A stretch of DNA of 64,000 bases, taken from IMG/VR virus record IMGVR_UViG_3300014202_001521, positions 66,931-130,930 of that record, one strand, 5' to 3'. Under the pieces are notes generated by a model. It was not told where the DNA came from and did no database searches. It saw nothing but the letters and a program-made list of their open reading frames with translations. The stretch comes from a virus. Made by a program: the position numbers and the translations under genes. The stretch's first letter is position 1, and every line of letters starts with the position of its first letter. Shown here piece after piece: positions 16,033-55,982 of this stretch.

Positions 16033-17552
16033 TTTAACCAAATAGCTCACGACATATGATTTGTGCTTCCCGATCTTCGGGATCATTGTCAATTGCCTTT
16101 TTAGCACACTCCATGTGGACAAAAGTATCAAATTCAAAGCAGAACACAAGATCATCGTCTTTGGTGTTGCAATACCAACAACCGCCGTCTTGTGGCGAGC
16201 ATGTCATAATACATTCCTTACAAACCAATTGAACATGAACCCTAACAGGAAGACCTGTATCAACAATGATATAAACCCGACATAAAAAGGATCAGTGTCG
16301 GAACACCATTCCAGTCGTCTGCTGCGGCCAATTAGATTGGCGGTGATGCTGATTAACAGACAGACGATGATTAACAGTGGGTAAATCATAGAATTAGGTC
16401 AATTAACCTCTCCCGAAGTTCTGCTTTCGTCCACTTATCAGTAGTGTATTGGGCAAACAGCAGTTTAATGCTATACACTAGCTTACTGGCGCGTTGATCT
16501 TTGGGGTCGATTTCCCAGGTGGTGGGAACGAACCAATCAGAAAATTCTTTGGCTGTGATAACGCCGTCGATGTATTTGCATAGTTTATCAATGATGGCGT
16601 TCTCAAGAGACATTGGGTTGGCCTTTGGCGCAATCGAGGTAATCTTCGAGGGCTTTTTCCAAACCGTATTCCTCAATTTCATTGCCATAACGAATATTGA
16701 ACTCATTACGGTCGCCAACGAAGAACCTGTTTTGGCACGCATGGCATTCACACCCATTAGGAATGTAAGGGTATTCACGCTCTGAATGACTATCATATAG
16801 CCAGTTTACGGCTTTACACTTTGGGCAATAGAACTTCCTATAGAACTCATAAAATTCTTGGATGTATAAGTCGCTCATGCGGTTGCTGCTTCACAATGTA
16901 ACTTCAGTTTTTCTTGTAATTCTTCATTGGTTTTGACACCGAATAAGAAGTTGATTGGGACATACACTGAATATCCCCCTTCTTTGTACCAAAGCCAAGT
17001 GCCATGCTTCCTAAAGATGGCTTCTTTGTCATTTAGATAATTGTTTGCTTTTTTCTCTCCTCGCGTTATTAAAGTATTCATGATTCGACTTTCCTCCATT
17101 TTTTATATTGTCTGGTATGTAAACACCACTCTTCGAATGCATTGCTTTTGATCCCATCATTTTACAAATTTGTTCCCCTAATACAAAACAGGCGAACCAC
17201 TCTTGACATTCGGATTCATTTTCCAAGTCGATATCGTTTATCAGTGCCCATGTAGTGAAAGTCCTCCATAACGGATGATCTGCCAGCAAATTCCTATGTG
17301 GCATTAATAGTCCCCTATAATAGTGTCGGTCGCACTGTCATATAGGCTGACTCTACGGATAATCTTCCTACTAGGAATCTTATCCACTTTCACACCAGCC
17401 AATGCCTGTAAATCACTTCGCTCATCAACAAACACCACAAGCATCTTATCAAATGTCTGTGCGTCATGTGGAGCGTCAACTACCTCTAAAACACAATCTG
17501 CTTGTGCCCAAAACTTCTTCAATTGGTCTATTTTGCTCATATACTATTATAG

Positions 17553-17675
17553 TGGCCAAGGCTGGAATTGAACCAACTCCTACGGAACAGAGGTAAGGTG
17601 CTTACTATGATGTGGGCATTTTCAGCCTCACGACACCTTACTTTTTCCGCCGCTCTGCCGTTGAGCTACTTAGCC
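17553..17675 (-). ncRNA. 123-nt tRNA-like gene with ~50-nt structured expansion of the anticodon arm
   Basis: Acceptor GGCTAAG/CTTGGCC plus A73, D arm GCTC-AACGGCA-GAGC, T arm GTTGG-TTCAATT-CCAGC; stem GCGGA/TCCGT encloses GTAAGGTG/CACCTTAC and an inner hairpin. Confidence 0.8.
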
Positions 17676-18047: not shown

Positions 18048-19496
18048 ACCATTTTACTCTTTATCCCGCAGGTCTTTCAAGCTTTCTTTGAACTTAATGT
18101 TGGATTTCTTTTCCTGATCGGTCAAAGAACGCTTCGGAAACTTATCCTGATGACAAATGCCGCATTTAGGATTGCCGCAGTCCCACGCATCCTTTTTGCG
18201 GAATCTGCCTACCTGATCGTCACATGCGCAATCAACGACGTATGGATCAACCCCGATTTTGTCGGGGCGACCGCCACGATCCTTGTTGCTGTCAACGTGT
18301 GACTTCCTATGAATCTTCCACTGACGATAGAATACGTTGTATTCTTCGTGCCATCTTTTCATGAGAACCTCCGTAGTGAAAAAAGTACCTAATACTGAGT
18401 TCACTACTGCGAGTCTTAAATAACGTTCTCATTTGACCACCTCTTTAACTTCTTTGTCTATATCAAACTCTTTCCTTCGATAAAGCACCGCCGCCTTATC
18501 GTTGTAACGATCTTTCTCTATATATAGACCGCCCCAATCCAGAGGCTCCCAATTATTTTTATGGAATGTGCTGTAATACACCGACAAATTAACTTTGCTG
18601 TATTTCTCCGCAATCGTCTTAATCTGTGGTAGTATGTAGGTGTTCAAGGCGCTCCGTAGAGCATATCTGATCCTAGCTGGAACCGAATAGACCGATATGT
18701 GCGTATCGTAGTCCATGATGGTTCCAGGTTCTCCCCATCGCTTAGCATACTTAGCATACGACAAAAGATTGATCTTGGTAAAAGAAAAATCTCGGAGTCT
18801 TCTGATTTTCTTGGGATTGCCTGGACTGTAACTATAAGTTAAAGCCAGACCATCTGTACTAAGAACAGAAGTTATGTCCGTAGTCTGGAGAACATAACTT
18901 AAACCCTTCGGCAATTTGTTTTTAGATATTCGATCTTCGAATTTACAGACGTATAAATCACTCATATTTCACTACTATTACATCAGGTTTAATGTTATAA
19001 ACACCACGATAAGCAATAATGTCTTCCGCAGTGATGCGGGGCCGAAGTTTAAACCAATCCGTGTGGTCAGTATCAGAGATATGATCCACCGACAACTGGA
19101 TTTCTTCGGTCTTTTGTGGGTGGTTATATCCTTCAAAGCGGTATTCCGCATCAAGGTATTTCCAACTGTTTTCCTGGCCAACTGTACCCTTGATAAACGT
19201 CACATTTTCAAGGACACAATAACCATAACTGGCCCAATATCCAAGCTGTCTCTTGTTAGATATACAGTCGGGTGCCGTCCACGTCTCCAAAGTCACCTTG
19301 TCGTACTTTTCGCCAATTAAATCCAGATGCTCAGGCAGTGGATTCCAAAAGCGAATGGCAACTCTGTTAGGATCGTCGTAAAACGGGTGCGATCCCTCAA
19401 TGTCTGATGGCCTTGGGGACTTATACCAGTAGCAAGGAATAAGTTTATATTCCCCGCCAACTTCTATCCCAAAGAATCTACGGGTTGGGTGGGCCA

Positions 19497-31148: not shown

Positions 31149-32375
31149 TCAGAATTGCTCCGCTTCGGTTGACTCTTTAAGAGCCGTTAGTTTGGACCCT
31201 ATGGTTTCCGCAACCATATCAAAATACCCTACGCCAACTTCCCTTTGGTGCTTAACCGCTGTATATCCTTGATCTTGTAAATCAAACTCCTTCTCCTGCA
31301 CATCCACATAAGCTTCCATATCTCTACGGTTGTATTCATAAGCCAAATCAAACATACCTTGATTTAGAACATGGAACCCAGCCAATGTTATAAACTGGAA
31401 CTTATAGCCCATCGCCCCTAGCTCTTTCTGGAAATCGAATATTTGTTTTTCATTTAGCTTTTTCTTCCAATGGAAACTTGGAGAACAATTATAGGCTAAT
31501 AGCTTGCCAGGATACTTGGCGTGAATGCCTTCTGCGAACTTTTTGGCTTCTTCCAGGTCAGGATGGCTGGTTTCACACCACAGCAGATCGGCATAAGGAG
31601 CGTAGGCTAACCCCCTGGCAATAGCCATGTCAATGCCGCCAGTGATATTACAAAATCCTTCTTCGGTTCTCGCACCCTTGACGAAAGGTTTATCAATATC
31701 ATCTATATCTGAAGTTAGAAGTTTAGCTGAGTCAGCATCTGTGCGTGCGATAATGACTGTTGGCACATTGAGAACATCAGCGGCAAGACGTGCAGCTACT
31801 AGGGTTTTAATGAAATGAGAGGCAGGTATTAGTACCTTGCCTCCCAAATGTCCACACTTTTTGGCCGATGATAATTGATCTTCAAAGTGTATGCCTGCTG
31901 TTCCTGCTTCTATCATCGCCTTTGTTAGTTCAAAGGCGTTTAGCGGTCCACCAAAGCCAGCTTCAGCGTCTGCCACGATTGGCACCCAATAGTCAGTGGT
32001 AATTTTGCCTTCCATCCACTGAATTTGGTCAGCACGTCTTAAACAGTTATTGATTCTACGCACTAGATTGGGAACACTATTGACAGCGTATAGAGATTGG
32101 TCTGGATACATTTGCATTGAGTCATTATTGTCGGCGGCGACTTGCCAACCAGAACAATAGATTGCTGGTAATTTAGCTTTGGCCATTTGCATAGCCTGAT
32201 TGCCTGTTACCGCTCCCAAAGCATGAACATAAGGCTTGTCATGCAACCTTTCCCAAAGTTTCTCTGAAGTTAATCTCGCTAAGCTGTGTTCTTCGACAAA
32301 AGAACCTTGAAGTTTTCTAACCTGATCTATATTGTAAGGACGCTCAACACCATGCCAACGGGTTTGTGTTTCCAT
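31149..32375 (-). CDS. aceA: Isocitrate lyase
   Basis: KKCGHLGGK catalytic motif, [32 protein letters not shown]. Confidence 0.97.
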
Positions 32376-40019: not shown

Positions 40020-40107
40020 TGGCCTTGGCGGGATTCGAACCCGCACCCTCTTACGAGGACAACGTTCTCAACGTTGCGCGTTTACCTGTATGTTACACCA
40101 CAAGGCC
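40020..40107 (-). tRNA. tRNA-Leu(GAG), long V arm, enlarged D loop
   Basis: GGCCTTG/CAAGGCC, CAACG-TT-GAG-AA-CGTTG, A73. Confidence 0.9.
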
Positions 40108-48900: not shown

Positions 48901-50541
48901 ATGAGTGAATATAGATGGCTAACAGACCTTTCTCGACAGTTTTTAGAGAGGGATTACCTAGTAAATGGTCAAACTGTAGAAGATAGAATTGATGTAATAT
49001 GCACTACTGCTGAGCGGATATTGAATAAGCCTGGGTTCGCTCAAGCATTTGAGCGTAACTTAAAGAAGGGCTGGTATTCCCTTAGCAGTCCGATATGGTC
49101 TAATTTTGGTACAAAGCGTGGTCTACCCATCAGTTGCTTCGGTTCAATGATCGAAGATACGATGGAGAACATCCTCTATACTCACGCCGAAGTTGGCATG
49201 ATGACCAAACACGGTGGCGGCACCTCTGCGTACTTTGGGAAGCTTCGTGGACGTGGCGAGCCTATTAAGAACAATGGAGAAAGCTCAGGCTCCGTCCACT
49301 TTATGTCCTTGTTTGAGAATCTAATTAATATCGTCAGCCAAGGAACCACAAGGCGAGGTAATTTCGCCGCGTATCTCCCAATTGACCACAAAGACATTCC
49401 TGAATTTCTTGGAATCAGAAGCGAAGGCCATATGATTCAAGATTTGTCGTTTGGGGTATGTGTGCATGATGCCTGGATGGAAGAAATGATCGCAGGCGAT
49501 GCTGAGAAACGAAAGATATGGGCTAAAGTCCTAGAAAGCCGAACCAACAAAGGATACCCATACCTATTCTTTACAGACAATGTAAATAAGAATAAGCCAG
49601 ATTGCTACAGAGATTTTCTTATTACGCATTCCAATCTCTGTACGGAGATTATGCTTCCTGACACAGTAGATGAATCATTCGTCTGTGACCTTTCCAGCAT
49701 GAATATTCTCTATTTCGATGAATGGAAAGACACCAATGCAATCGAACTATTAGTCTACTTTCTTGACGCTGTAATGACCGAATTTATTGACAAGGCCAAG
49801 AAGGTTGACTTCATGCAGCGACCTGTTCGTTTTGCAGAGAGACACCGCGCACTTGGTATTGGCTGGCTTGGTTATCACAGCTATCTACAGAGTAAGATGA
49901 TTCCATTTGAAAGCATGGAAGCGAAGTACGCTAACGTCACTATCGCCAAGAACATGAAGGAAGCTGCCTACAAAGCTTCTGCAAAGATGGCTGAAGAATA
50001 TGGTGAGCCAGAAGTCTTGAAGGGCTACGGTCGCAGGAACTCTACATTATTGGCTATTGCGCCAACAAAATCTTCGGCGTTCATCATGGGTCAGGTTTCA
50101 GAGAATACAGAGCCTAATCGTGCCAATATTGTCATTAAGGATTTGCAGAAGGGTAAGTACACAATGAAAAACACTTACCTTGAGGCTTTGCTTGAAAGCA
50201 AGGGTAAGAACGATGAATCAACGTGGTCCAGCATATTGAAAAACTCTGGCAGTGTTCAACACTTAGATTTCCTTACTGACCATGAGAAGGCTGTATTTAA
50301 GACTTTCGCTGAGATTACGCCTAGAGAGATTATCATTCAGGCGGCTCAGCGTCAGAAATACATAGATCAGGCACAATCTATTAACATAATGATTCATCCA
50401 TCTATACCAATTAAGGATGTGAATGCTTTGATTATAGAAGGGTGGCAAATGGGTATCAAGAGTTTCTACTACCAATACTCAGTCAATGCCGCCCAAAATT
50501 TTGCTAGAAATATATTAGCGTGTTCTAGTTGTGAGGCTTAG
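48901..50541 (+). CDS. nrdA: Ribonucleotide reductase class Ia alpha subunit
   Basis: ISCF, SNLCTE, IAPTKSS, C-terminal CSSCEA. Confidence 0.95.
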   Translation: MSEYRWLTDLSRQFLERDYLVNGQTVEDRIDVICTTAERILNKPGFAQAFERNLKKGWYSLSSPIWSNFGTKRGLPISCFGSMIEDTMENILYTHAEVGMMTKHGGGTSAYFGKLRGRGEPIKNNGESSGSVHFMSLFENLINIVSQGTTRRGNFAAYLPIDHKDIPEFLGIRSEGHMIQDLSFGVCVHDAWMEEMIAGDAEKRKIWAKVLESRTNKGYPYLFFTDNVNKNKPDCYRDFLITHSNLCTEIMLPDTVDESFVCDLSSMNILYFDEWKDTNAIELLVYFLDAVMTEFIDKAKKVDFMQRPVRFAERHRALGIGWLGYHSYLQSKMIPFESMEAKYANVTIAKNMKEAAYKASAKMAEEYGEPEVLKGYGRRNSTLLAIAPTKSSAFIMGQVSENTEPNRANIVIKDLQKGKYTMKNTYLEALLESKGKNDESTWSSILKNSGSVQHLDFLTDHEKAVFKTFAEITPREIIIQAAQRQKYIDQAQSINIMIHPSIPIKDVNALIIEGWQMGIKSFYYQYSVNAAQNFARNILACSSCEA

Positions 50542-54110: not shown

Positions 54111-54341
54111 TTCAATTTGTTGCATTTGCGGTCGAAAAACCCCTGAATGCGAAAGCATCTCAGAGCATGGCTACATGAAAAATAAGTTAGGGTTTTCGGA
54201 AGTTACTATTATAAGCGGTTATTATCCTAATGGATATCATTATTCAATACGCAAGATAGATTTTTGCCCTTCTTGTTCCAAGAAATCTTATACGATAGAG
54301 GATTTAAAGACTATCGGCAACTACAATCAGTGGAGCTACTG

Positions 54342-55982
54342 ATGGCAAAGTATATTGCAATTTTAGGTGGTGTAATTAGTGGCACTGGAAAGGGTATTTC
54401 CGCTGCTTCTATTGGTTTTCTATTGAGTTTGCGTGGTCATAAGGTTCAACCTATTAAGTTTGATCCTTATTTCAACACAAACGCAGGAGTCCTTGCACCT
54501 AGAGAACATGGCGAAGTGTTCCTCTGCGATGACGGCAGCGAAACGGATTTAGATTTAGGACACTACGAACGTATTATTGGCGTACCAGTTTCAGGCAAGA
54601 ATATCATGACCAGCGGTACGCTCTACAAGGAACTTCTCAATGAAGAAGAAGAGGGTAAATATCTTGGTCAGACTGTCCAGGTTATTCCACATCTTACAGA
54701 TAAAATACAAGCCCGTCTAACCGAATTAGGAAAGGACACAGAAATTGTAATTTGTGAGATTGGTGGCACCGTTGGCGACCTGGAAAGCGGCCCCTACCTA
54801 GAAGCTATACGCCAATTCAAACAAAAGAATTGGGACGATGTTTTGATTATGTTGGTTGGCCCTATTCTATGGATTCCAACAATCAAAGAGTTTAAGACCA
54901 AACCACTGCAAAACAGTGTCAAGGAAATGCAGTCATTCGGCTTGCAGCCTGATATATTGCTTTGCCGTATTGATCGTGAAATGCCAACGAAGATGTTAGA
55001 CAAAATCGCCAATCTAACCAATGTGCCCCGTGAAGCGGTCTTTGATGCTCCTGACGTTAAGACCATTTACCAAGTCCCAATCGAGTTTTATAACCGTCAT
55101 ATTGACGACCTTATCGCTGATAAGTTCCACTTAAAGCGTAATGGCTGTCGCATCCACAAGTATCGTGAGCTAGTAGAAAAGTATGTAGATCATGAGGATA
55201 TGCCTGTAGTGACCATAGCCATTGTAGGCAAGTATGATAACTGCGACGAAGCTTATCTTTCTCTAAAAGAAGCTGTTTATCATGCTGCGGTCGAACATGA
55301 AGTAAGGGCCGATATCAAGTGGATTAATGCCAAAGAACTTGAGCAAGCCAAGGATATGCGTGGTGTATGGAAGTATTTCGAAGACGTGGATGGCGTAATC
55401 GTTCCAGGTGGATTTGATTCATCTGGCGTCGAGGGTAAGATTCGTGCCATTAAGTATGTCCGCGAGAAAAAGATTCCTTTCCTGGGCATTTGTTTAGGTT
55501 TGCAATGTGCTGTTATTGAAATTGCTCGCAATCTGTGCCACTTGGAAGGTGCCAATAGCGTTGAGTTCGATAAAGAAACCAAGCATCCTGTTATTCACTT
55601 TGTAGAAGGGCAGGAGAAGATTAGGAAGAAGTCAGGGACAATGAGGTTGGGTGCTTTTGATTGTGAATTAGTCAAGGGCAGTATTATACATGAATTGTAT
55701 AAGAAGTCTTTAATTAGTGAAAGACACCGCCATCGTTATGAAGTTAATTCTGAGTATGTTAGTTCTCTTGAGAAAGCACAATTTATAACTTCTGGAGTAA
55801 ATCCTGACACCAAGTTAATTGAAATGATGGAGTTAGAGCGTGGTACTAATCAGTTCTTCGTAGCTACCCAGGCTCACCCTGAGTTTAAGAGTAGATTAGG
55901 GAGTCCTGCCCCACTGTTTATTGGTTTAATTCAGGCGGCTATTAAATCAAAAGGCGAAAAAGCTCCTGCTAATACTACATAA
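54342..55982 (+). CDS. pyrG: CTP synthase
   Basis: GGVISGTGKG, DLDLGHYER, EIGGTVGD, KTKPLQ, GICLG, HRHRYE, QAHPE. Confidence 0.97.
   Translation: MAKYIAILGGVISGTGKGISAASIGFLLSLRGHKVQPIKFDPYFNTNAGVLAPREHGEVFLCDDGSETDLDLGHYERIIGVPVSGKNIMTSGTLYKELLNEEEEGKYLGQTVQVIPHLTDKIQARLTELGKDTEIVICEIGGTVGDLESGPYLEAIRQFKQKNWDDVLIMLVGPILWIPTIKEFKTKPLQNSVKEMQSFGLQPDILLCRIDREMPTKMLDKIANLTNVPREAVFDAPDVKTIYQVPIEFYNRHIDDLIADKFHLKRNGCRIHKYRELVEKYVDHEDMPVVTIAIVGKYDNCDEAYLSLKEAVYHAAVEHEVRADIKWINAKELEQAKDMRGVWKYFEDVDGVIVPGGFDSSGVEGKIRAIKYVREKKIPFLGICLGLQCAVIEIARNLCHLEGANSVEFDKETKHPVIHFVEGQEKIRKKSGTMRLGAFDCELVKGSIIHELYKKSLISERHRHRYEVNSEYVSSLEKAQFITSGVNPDTKLIEMMELERGTNQFFVATQAHPEFKSRLGSPAPLFIGLIQAAIKSKGEKAPANTT

Follow-up and report, generated by a model that had tools for sequence, protein, structure and literature searches.

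Does a tRNA-like gene of 123 nt, with a large hairpin in place of its anticodon loop, represent a real gene of a huge phage, and could its RNA become a functional tRNA? The window analyzed here is a stretch of 64,000 nucleotides, which corresponds to bases 9376-73375 of a 103,371-bp IMG/VR viral contig. Since the estimated completeness of this contig is only 21%, it must be a fragment of the genome of a phage of about 0.5 Mb. In summary, the insert-bearing tRNA gene is real, conserved, and of the tRNA-Arg type. As judged from sequence comparison, the insert may be a mini-intron that is spliced by proteins to yield a tRNA, and I assign a probability of roughly 0.5 to this reading.

The features of the gene are listed in Table 1. 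The Rfam tRNA model RF00005, whose gathering cut-off is 29 bits, matches the gene from end to end (model 1-71) at 47.6 bits, with a 59-nt insertion at the loop. These 59 nt occupy the place of the 7-nt anticodon loop and consist of AAAA, P1, UC, P2, J, and CUCUGU in this order. The minimum free energy (MFE) fold is identical to the structure described in Table 1; its energy is -47 kcal/mol (z = -4.5), and 1 of 200 shuffles was equally stable. All four tRNA helices are fully paired in the window copy, including the acceptor stem GGCUAAG/CUUGGCC and the anticodon stem GCGGA(A)/(U)UCCGU, and pairing is standard at 35 of the 35 modelled pairs. Thus, the canonical acceptor, D, and T arms, the anticodon stem, the 8-bp P1 helix, and the inner P2 hairpin, all of which had been described in an earlier note on this DNA, were confirmed on the minus strand. 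The same note had placed a loop of CUGAAAA at the tip. This 7-mer is present, but the loop that is actually closed, by the GGC/GCC pairs, is UGAAAAU. The gene was missed by ARAGORN in its default mode, and was reported as a tRNA-Arg(tct) with a 52-nt intron when introns were allowed (-i). In an Rfam search of the gene at E<=1, tRNA was the sole match.

Table 1. Features of the insert-bearing tRNA gene in the window (sequences are written as RNA, 5′ to 3′ on the minus strand)
Feature	Position	Strand	Basis
Whole insert-bearing gene, tRNA-Arg(UCU) type, 123 nt	17553..17675	-	Rfam RF00005; ARAGORN -i; homologues via models R1/R2
5′ part: acceptor 5′ strand, U8A9, D arm GCUC-AACGGCA-GAGC, G26, anticodon-stem 5′ strand GCGGA	17646..17675	-	Helices covary with homologues
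5′ junction AAAA (relatives: AUUAC); putative 5′ splice site, after tRNA position 31 or 33	17642..17645	-	Alignments A5/A6
P1 5′ strand GUAAGGUG	17634..17641	-	8 bp with 17593-17600
P2 hairpin GUG(A)GGC-UGAAAAU-GCCCAC; tip GGCUGAAAAUGCC identical in L252, L195, and L253	17612..17631	-	
J, 11-nt single strand AUCAUAGUAAG, consensus WUYAUAGU (core strand AUYAUAGU)	17601..17611	-	
P1 3′ strand CACCUUAC	17593..17600	-	Pairs with GUAAGGUG
3′ junction CUCUGU, presumed anticodon UCU at 17589-17591 (relatives: CUCUAA, CCCUAA)	17587..17592	-	
3′ part: UCCGU, variable AGGA, T arm GUUGG-UUCAAUU-CCAGC, acceptor CUUGGCC, A73	17553..17586	-	

Is this insert found in other phages? A covariance model made from the window sequence alone (R1) was searched over 48 phage records. 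It matched L252 (G045:113934-114057) at 76 bits and L253 (G041:81714-81837) at 75 bits; the ordinary tRNAs of the window scored 27 bits at most. A scan for the J strand and the T loop revealed L165:5833-5951, a 119-nt tRNA-like gene on a 259-kb contig, which scores 39 bits with R1 and 32.4 bits with the Rfam tRNA model. L165 has the same acceptor 3′ strand as the window copy and also the same UCAUAGUAAGC. A pattern of the conserved P2 tip and J further revealed L195:7957-8080, whose sequence is identical to that of the G045 copy (L252). The L195 locus is syntenic with the window contig, the flanking genes being 44-89% identical at the protein level; the gene upstream of the element matches window 18066-18377 (70-89% amino-acid identity), and the gene downstream matches window 16046-16228. 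The shared gene neighbourhood indicates that the window and L195 copies are orthologues in related huge phages. In total, the insert is conserved in G045, G041, G071, and G037; the related phages are of about 0.5 Mb, and the same neighbourhood was demonstrated in one case (L195). The five records that hold the element, all of them fragments, are the window contig, IMGVR_UViG_3300003310_000098, 3300036766_002288, 3300015615_000163, and 3300022555_003232.

Other searches set the limits of this family. A blastn search of the locus and of the gene against the INPHARED phages gave no match, and no relatives were reached via the neighbouring 78-aa ORF. Relatives reached via the ribonucleotide reductase (RNR) or release-factor gene have up to 63 tRNAs and no insert-bearing gene among them. 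The exact pattern of the T-arm and acceptor 22-mer has no copies in IMG/VR. An exon-flank pattern gave three chance matches in coding DNA in metagenome contigs, and the P2 and J pattern gave four in GTDB genomes, also in coding DNA, none of which fits model R2. Two "introns" reported by ARAGORN in L021 were found to be artefacts.

The earlier note had proposed to look for covariation in relatives, and the covariance-model search provided it. In alignment A5, which consists of four distinct sequences fitted to the structure, 92% of the pair cells are standard and 20 of the 35 pairs are changed on both sides with the pairing kept; none of 500 shuffles was as good. When the partners were slid by 1-3 columns as a control, pairing was 38-47% and double changes were seen in 1-5 pairs. 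The double-changed pairs include four of eight in P1, four of six in P2, and four of five in the anticodon stem. Separate MFE folds of L252, L253, and L165 have the same architecture as the window copy. The thermodynamic z-scores of these relatives are unremarkable (-0.7 to -2.1), the window copy being the most stable fold of the family.

The conservation is uneven along the gene. L252 and L253 share P2 and J with 100% identity and differ in the D stem, the variable region, the T stem, and P1. The 11-nt J strand is shared at all 11 positions by L252 and L253, at 10 by the window copy and L165, and at 7 by the window copy and L252. Thus, the insert core (the tip GGC-UGAAAAU-GCC plus J) is at least as conserved as the exons. 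These results show that the gene, its fold, and its insert have been kept by selection across related phages. As judged from this pattern of conservation, the insert is not junk, a recent insertion of mobile DNA, or an assembly artefact. The UGAAA of the P2 loop fits the pattern U-G-N-R-A and is presumably T-loop-like, which may explain why it is fixed.

From which tRNA does this family derive? L252 has the anticodon stem GUAGA/UCUAC, the 5′ junction AUUAC, and the 3′ junction CUCUAA. Removal of 52 nt would join AU to UCUAA and make the loop AUUCUAA, with U33, the anticodon UCU, A37, and A38. At the predicted junction, the joined exons of the relatives read GUAGAAU + UCUAAUCUAC, and the window equivalent is GCGGAA(A) + (C)UCUGU. 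The same removal from L253 would make AUCCUAA with the anticodon CCU. The two joined loops differ at the wobble base alone, and both would read arginine AGR codons. It was thus shown that, in the relatives, one excision would restore the exact loop of a normal tRNA-Arg(UCU); these canonical loops come from two closely related sequences, and the chance of U33 together with R37 is about 1 in 8. ARAGORN reports the G045 copy, too, as a tRNA-Arg(tct) with a 52-nt intron. The joined L252 exons match only the tRNA-Arg genes of Escherichia coli jumbo phages (81% over 48 nt), in the stretch of the 3′ half that comprises the loop, the variable region, and the T arm. One of these genes, the insert-free gene of the Asteriusvirus vB_Eco_slurp01 (LT603033.1 13907-13983), is annotated as tRNA-Arg(tct) and has the loop AUUCUAA, identical to the joined L252 loop. 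AGA is the commonest arginine codon in both the window phage and the G045 phage, and AGA and AGG together account for 46% and 61% of their arginine codons, respectively. The Arg(UCU) and Arg(CCU) loops, the match to tRNA-Arg(tct), and the codon use indicate that the family derives from tRNA-Arg(YCU). The genes of the close relatives look, as far as their loops and exons tell, fully able to become tRNA-Arg(YCU).

The window copy differs at the loop. Where vB_Eco_slurp01 has AU..UCUAA, the window copy has AA..UCUGU, and the window copy itself has no blastn match to an annotated tRNA-Arg(tct) in INPHARED. The UCU is kept; any single excision would make the loop AAUCUGU or (A/C)CUCUGU, with A33 or C33, G37, and U38. 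Position 20 in the D loop is C. A20 is normally required by bacterial ArgRS as its main determinant, and tRNAs with U36, which read codons starting with A, normally carry A37. The unusual loop suggests that decoding by the window copy may be poor or even absent. In L165, the D stem is of only 2 bp, and no anticodon loop can be recovered. Either the changed loop flanks are tolerated in the window copy, or the use of the RNA is independent of decoding in some lineages.

The surroundings of the gene were also analyzed. The contig has 18 other tRNA genes, all for Leu, Ser, or Tyr, and the long variable arm of the tRNA-Tyr genes, a feature of bacterial tRNA-Tyr, shows that the host is bacterial. 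The tRNA-Arg gene is solitary, about 16 kb away from the main tRNA array. G045 has the same odd repertoire, with 11 Leu/Ser/Tyr tRNAs and the insert-bearing gene within 210 kb; window 7742-42756 and G045:99864-112301 each hold only Leu, Ser, and Tyr tRNAs plus the single Arg gene. In G018, a related phage with a complete 527-kb genome, the other tRNAs lie in separate clusters. Another Rfam tRNA match (51.6 bits) in the window, at 40020-40107 on the minus strand, is not reported by ARAGORN. Small ORFs of the same orientation surround the tRNA-Arg gene; its first 10 nt are overlapped by a 55-aa ORF, the next ORF begins 13 nt past its end, and none of the ten flanking ORFs belongs to a Pfam or PHROG family. 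A strong intrinsic-terminator-like hairpin, GGGGCGGG-GAAA-CCCGCCCC followed by a U-rich tail, lies at window 18047-18028 (minus), where it ends a conserved 116-aa gene; about 350 nt separate it from the tRNA-Arg gene downstream. The tRNA-Arg gene probably has its own start signal in the gap after this hairpin. According to Pfam, the window phage also encodes an isocitrate lyase-family protein, the large subunit of ribonucleotide reductase, and a CTP synthase (31149-32375, 48901-50541, and 54264-55982).

How could the insert be removed? The 52-nt structured element, made of P1, P2, and J, lies 5′ of the anticodon after tRNA position 31 or 33. A protein endonuclease would cut the internal loop that separates the anticodon stem from P1, on both of its strands, and host RNase III or tRNA-processing enzymes are candidates for this nuclease. 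Pairing in the acceptor, D, T, and anticodon stems would keep the two tRNA halves together. An ATP-dependent RNA ligase such as those encoded by the relatives might then reseal the halves to make a tRNA for AGA and AGG.

A PF09414 RNA ligase is encoded in G045, G041, and G037. In G037, 2.7 kb separate the ligase gene (186089-186604) from the tRNA-like element. In G045, the locus L278:3391-5253 (G045:63391-65253) encodes an RNA ligase with PF09414 and a PHA02142 OB fold, directly followed by a Thg1-like gene; the Thg1-like family is known for tRNA 5′-end repair. A gene of the uracil-DNA glycosylase family comes after this pair in G045. The PF09414 ligase is absent from the window's 103-kb contig. 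EndA (PF01974) had no match in 18 phage records including the window contig, while archaeal controls were positive. RtcB was found in 3 of the 18 records searched and was absent from all five element-bearing records. Phage RNase III was not found in these five records, nor was T4 Rnl1 in a search that had no positive control; all five are fragments.

In the early RNAs of phage T7, the RNase III processing signals are hairpins with an internal loop, and the insert hairpin with its internal loop resembles these signals. RNase III and RNase P leave 3′-OH and 5′-phosphate ends. Since Rnl-type ligases join such ends, a model of a host endonuclease plus a phage ligase, conjectural as a whole, would be chemically coherent. 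A wider proposal is tentative and somewhat doubtful: bacterial viruses might have a third kind of tRNA intron besides group I and the bulge-helix-bulge type, a structured hairpin module of about 50 nt on the 5′ side of the anticodon. It would be excised at the foot of its outer helix by host RNase III or an RNase P/Z-type activity, and the tRNA would be resealed by Rnl2-family and Thg1-like enzymes, with the P2 tip and J as the recognition signal. Such a module could gate the timing at which the phage tRNA for AGA/AGG becomes available.

Two structural ideas on the insert were rejected. A pseudoknot between the P2 loop and J would have only 3 bp in the window copy; it suits several members, but not all, of the insert family with AC(A/C/U)GC(A/G)A described below. 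A mini-tRNA-shaped intron was also considered, as P1 and P2 resemble an acceptor/T-arm minihelix. However, the 11-nt strand is on the wrong side of the junction compared with a real tRNA, and thus recognition by RNase P or RNase Z is not implied by the shape alone.

Does the RNA have to be spliced at all? The earlier note had named a tRNA mimic or decoy and a regulatory RNA among its readings. The RNA might be an unspliced, non-decoding tRNA-like RNA, whose acceptor/T/D scaffold recruits tRNA enzymes such as RNase P, the CCA-adding enzyme, and perhaps an anticodon-blind synthetase, and whose long arm is the working part. With its P2 tip and J, this arm would then serve as a decoy, as a sensor, or as a docking site for a partner protein. 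The strong conservation of the insert core, the J strand shared by the window copy and the otherwise very different L165, and the lack of a splicing enzyme among the phage records searched are all in line with this idea. Moreover, the window copy and L165 have no canonical loop, yet compensatory changes keep every helix. Phage tRNA-Leu genes often have the acceptor GGCYRAG/CUUGGCC with A73, and bacterial LeuRS is not known to read the anticodon. However, one excision from L252 and L253 would give exactly the Arg(UCU) and Arg(CCU) loops, with a change at the wobble base only as in isoacceptors, and this speaks against a non-decoding RNA. Neither a Ro/TROVE gene nor a YrlA match was found, and no partner was identified. 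An unspliced RNA is the main rival of the spliced reading, and I regard it as rather unlikely.

It is less probable still that the window copy is a defunct, decaying intron-bearing tRNA-Arg with a damaged loop. Compared with the canonical loop of the relatives, the window copy is changed at three of seven positions (U33 lost, A37G, and A38U), and the solitary position of the gene would suit decay. Nevertheless, compensatory double changes in the stems are a mark of selection on structure and not of decay. The complete set of standard pairs and the most stable fold of the family make plain decay unlikely.

The earlier note had also taken the gene for a doubly interrupted tRNA-Phe. An interruption of the anticodon arm stood the analysis; the tRNA-Phe with two interruptions did not, and is very improbable. 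If two segments of 20 and 32 nt were removed, the arm GCGGA-CUGAAAA-UCCGU would result, and L252 permits the same construction (GUAGA-CUGAAAA-UCUAC). At the tip, CUGAAAA is kept in three close copies, and the window exons resemble phage tRNA-Phe genes with the same acceptor and anticodon stem (L202 and L221). On the other hand, the loop closed by pairing is UGAAAAU, the distant L165 has a GUGA tetraloop at the tip, and a 7-mer of the form Y-U-N-N-N-R-N is expected by chance about once per 16 positions. The exons of the relatives align with tRNA-Arg(tct), the L252 anticodon stem is not Phe-like, and two excisions would be needed where one suffices for Arg. As for an assembly chimera or a recent mobile DNA hairpin (MITE), the source is a metagenome assembly and hairpin inserts can be DNA elements, but both are hardly credible: four other assemblies from different samples have the same insert at the same site with covarying stems, which rules out the chimera and the lack of conservation that the earlier note had named as ways to refute its reading, and the 103-kb contig has no second copy of the insert.

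Are inserts common in the tRNA genes of other phages? In a D-arm-anchored scan of IMG/VR, phage contigs were commonly seen to have tRNA genes of 100-127 nt, and three or four of these genes are often adjacent. In 22 of 46 long phage tRNAs, deletion of one contiguous segment leaves a near-perfect anticodon arm, while 0.7 would be expected from shuffles. The sites inferred for these inserts are mostly at positions 26-34, 5′ of or just inside the anticodon loop; some are ambiguous (L029). In 16 loci with such inserts, no small self-cleaving ribozyme was matched at E<=0.1 or E<=1.

Several types of insert were recognized. One recurrent family has an outer helix, an inner hairpin, and then a strand with AC(A/C/U)GC(A/G)A, and has no Rfam match. 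It was found in L024, L027 (10451-10932, four adjacent), L038 (526-947), L081 (6657-7187), L092, L106, L132, and L133, and occurs in several neighbouring tRNAs of one phage at differing positions (26/27 to 33/34). The window insert was considered as a member, with the same order of parts, the same site, and the same length; its AUAGUAA differs from ACAGCAA by two C-to-U changes. True members never show U at those Cs, and the window insert was therefore treated as a separate family. A second recurrent family has a CCCU../..AGGG helix, GCA(A/G)NACUUG, a hairpin in which a CG bulge is conserved, CCGAAG, and a 3′-terminal GGUUAYC. It was found in L086 (three adjacent, 2336-2721 minus), L108 (two), L065, and L119, and the 5′ and 3′ ends of these inserts pair across the putative splice sites. 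The inserts of L232, L235, L237 (122 nt), L029, and L049 (118 nt) have a canonical T arm (e.g., CUGG-UUCGAUU-CCAG) and D-arm-like pieces, and represent the "tRNA inside a tRNA" type known from published work. Two long-arm tRNA-Leu genes (L197:7030-7147 and L214:5169-5272) have a hairpin insert of about 20-33 nt in the anticodon loop after U33. In a tRNA cluster of the 488-kb record G029, L108:2370-2619 (minus) matches RF00010 at 53 bits (the cut-off being 100), with model 1-367 fitted in about 250 nt. This may be a phage-encoded reduced RNase P RNA.

Protein-based tRNA splicing is not known in bacteria. The window locus offers a small and defined test case, with an insert of 52 nt, a fold backed by covariation, and invariant elements that are open to mutation. 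It also offers a natural contrast: the relatives give a perfect Arg(UCU) loop whereas the window variant does not, and candidate repair enzymes are encoded in the same phage lineage. If the RNA is spliced, a new route of RNA processing would exist in bacteria. If it is not, it would represent a new class of tRNA-like RNA of giant phages.

How does the insert compare with known systems? The gene resembles YrlA, the bacterial Y RNA (RF02553), in that a tRNA-like module of acceptor, T, and D arms is combined with a long helix replacing the anticodon arm. The topology of YrlA is permuted, its two ends being in the long stem. RF02553 had no match in the window gene, and Ro60/TROVE (PF05731) is absent from the window contig and from four relatives found through the release-factor gene (G015-G018). 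Hammerhead, twister, pistol, hatchet, and HDV-like ribozymes had no Rfam match in the window gene at E<=1. Group I introns are known in the anticodon loops of bacterial and phage tRNAs, such as cyanobacterial tRNA-Leu(UAA) (PMC3984707), and the window insert likewise interrupts the anticodon loop of a tRNA in the bacterial world. However, group I introns have a catalytic core (P1-P9) and a length of about 200 nt or more, while the window insert is of 52 nt and has no match to RF00028 or any other Rfam ribozyme; the earlier note had rightly judged it too short. In archaea and eukaryotes, the EndA/Sen endonuclease cuts tRNA introns at a bulge-helix-bulge (PMC4090602). The window insert is similarly short, its position may be non-canonical, the exons are held by the tRNA body, and its splicing by proteins is putative. 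In contrast to the bulge-helix-bulge, which has two 3-nt bulges and a 4-bp helix, the window junction is a 4x6-nt internal loop before an 8-bp helix, and in the relatives the anticodon stem is longer by 3 bp and has a small loop in addition, in agreement with the earlier statement that no clear bulge-helix-bulge is visible. PF01974 is also absent from the 18 phage records, and the host is bacterial.

The closest known counterparts are among huge phages themselves. "Enigmatic" introns were reported in tRNAs of huge phages, among them the Lak megaphages (Devoto et al. 2019, PMC6784885 / bioRxiv 10.1101/356790), and a 2026 survey found intronic tRNAs in 262 jumbo phages (PMC13037316). In both papers, the inserts were reported without a structure or mechanism, and some were described as "encoding another tRNA"; a literature search revealed no paper that gives a structure or mechanism for the tRNA introns of huge phages. 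Like these introns, the window gene is over-long, has an insert of tens of nucleotides in the anticodon arm, and is conserved among relatives. Thus, the window gene belongs to a known, unexplained class of huge-phage tRNA introns. Compared with the published inserts, the window insert lies 5′ of the wobble base of a tRNA-Arg(YCU), and it is not a whole mini-tRNA but a P1-P2-J element supported by covariation.
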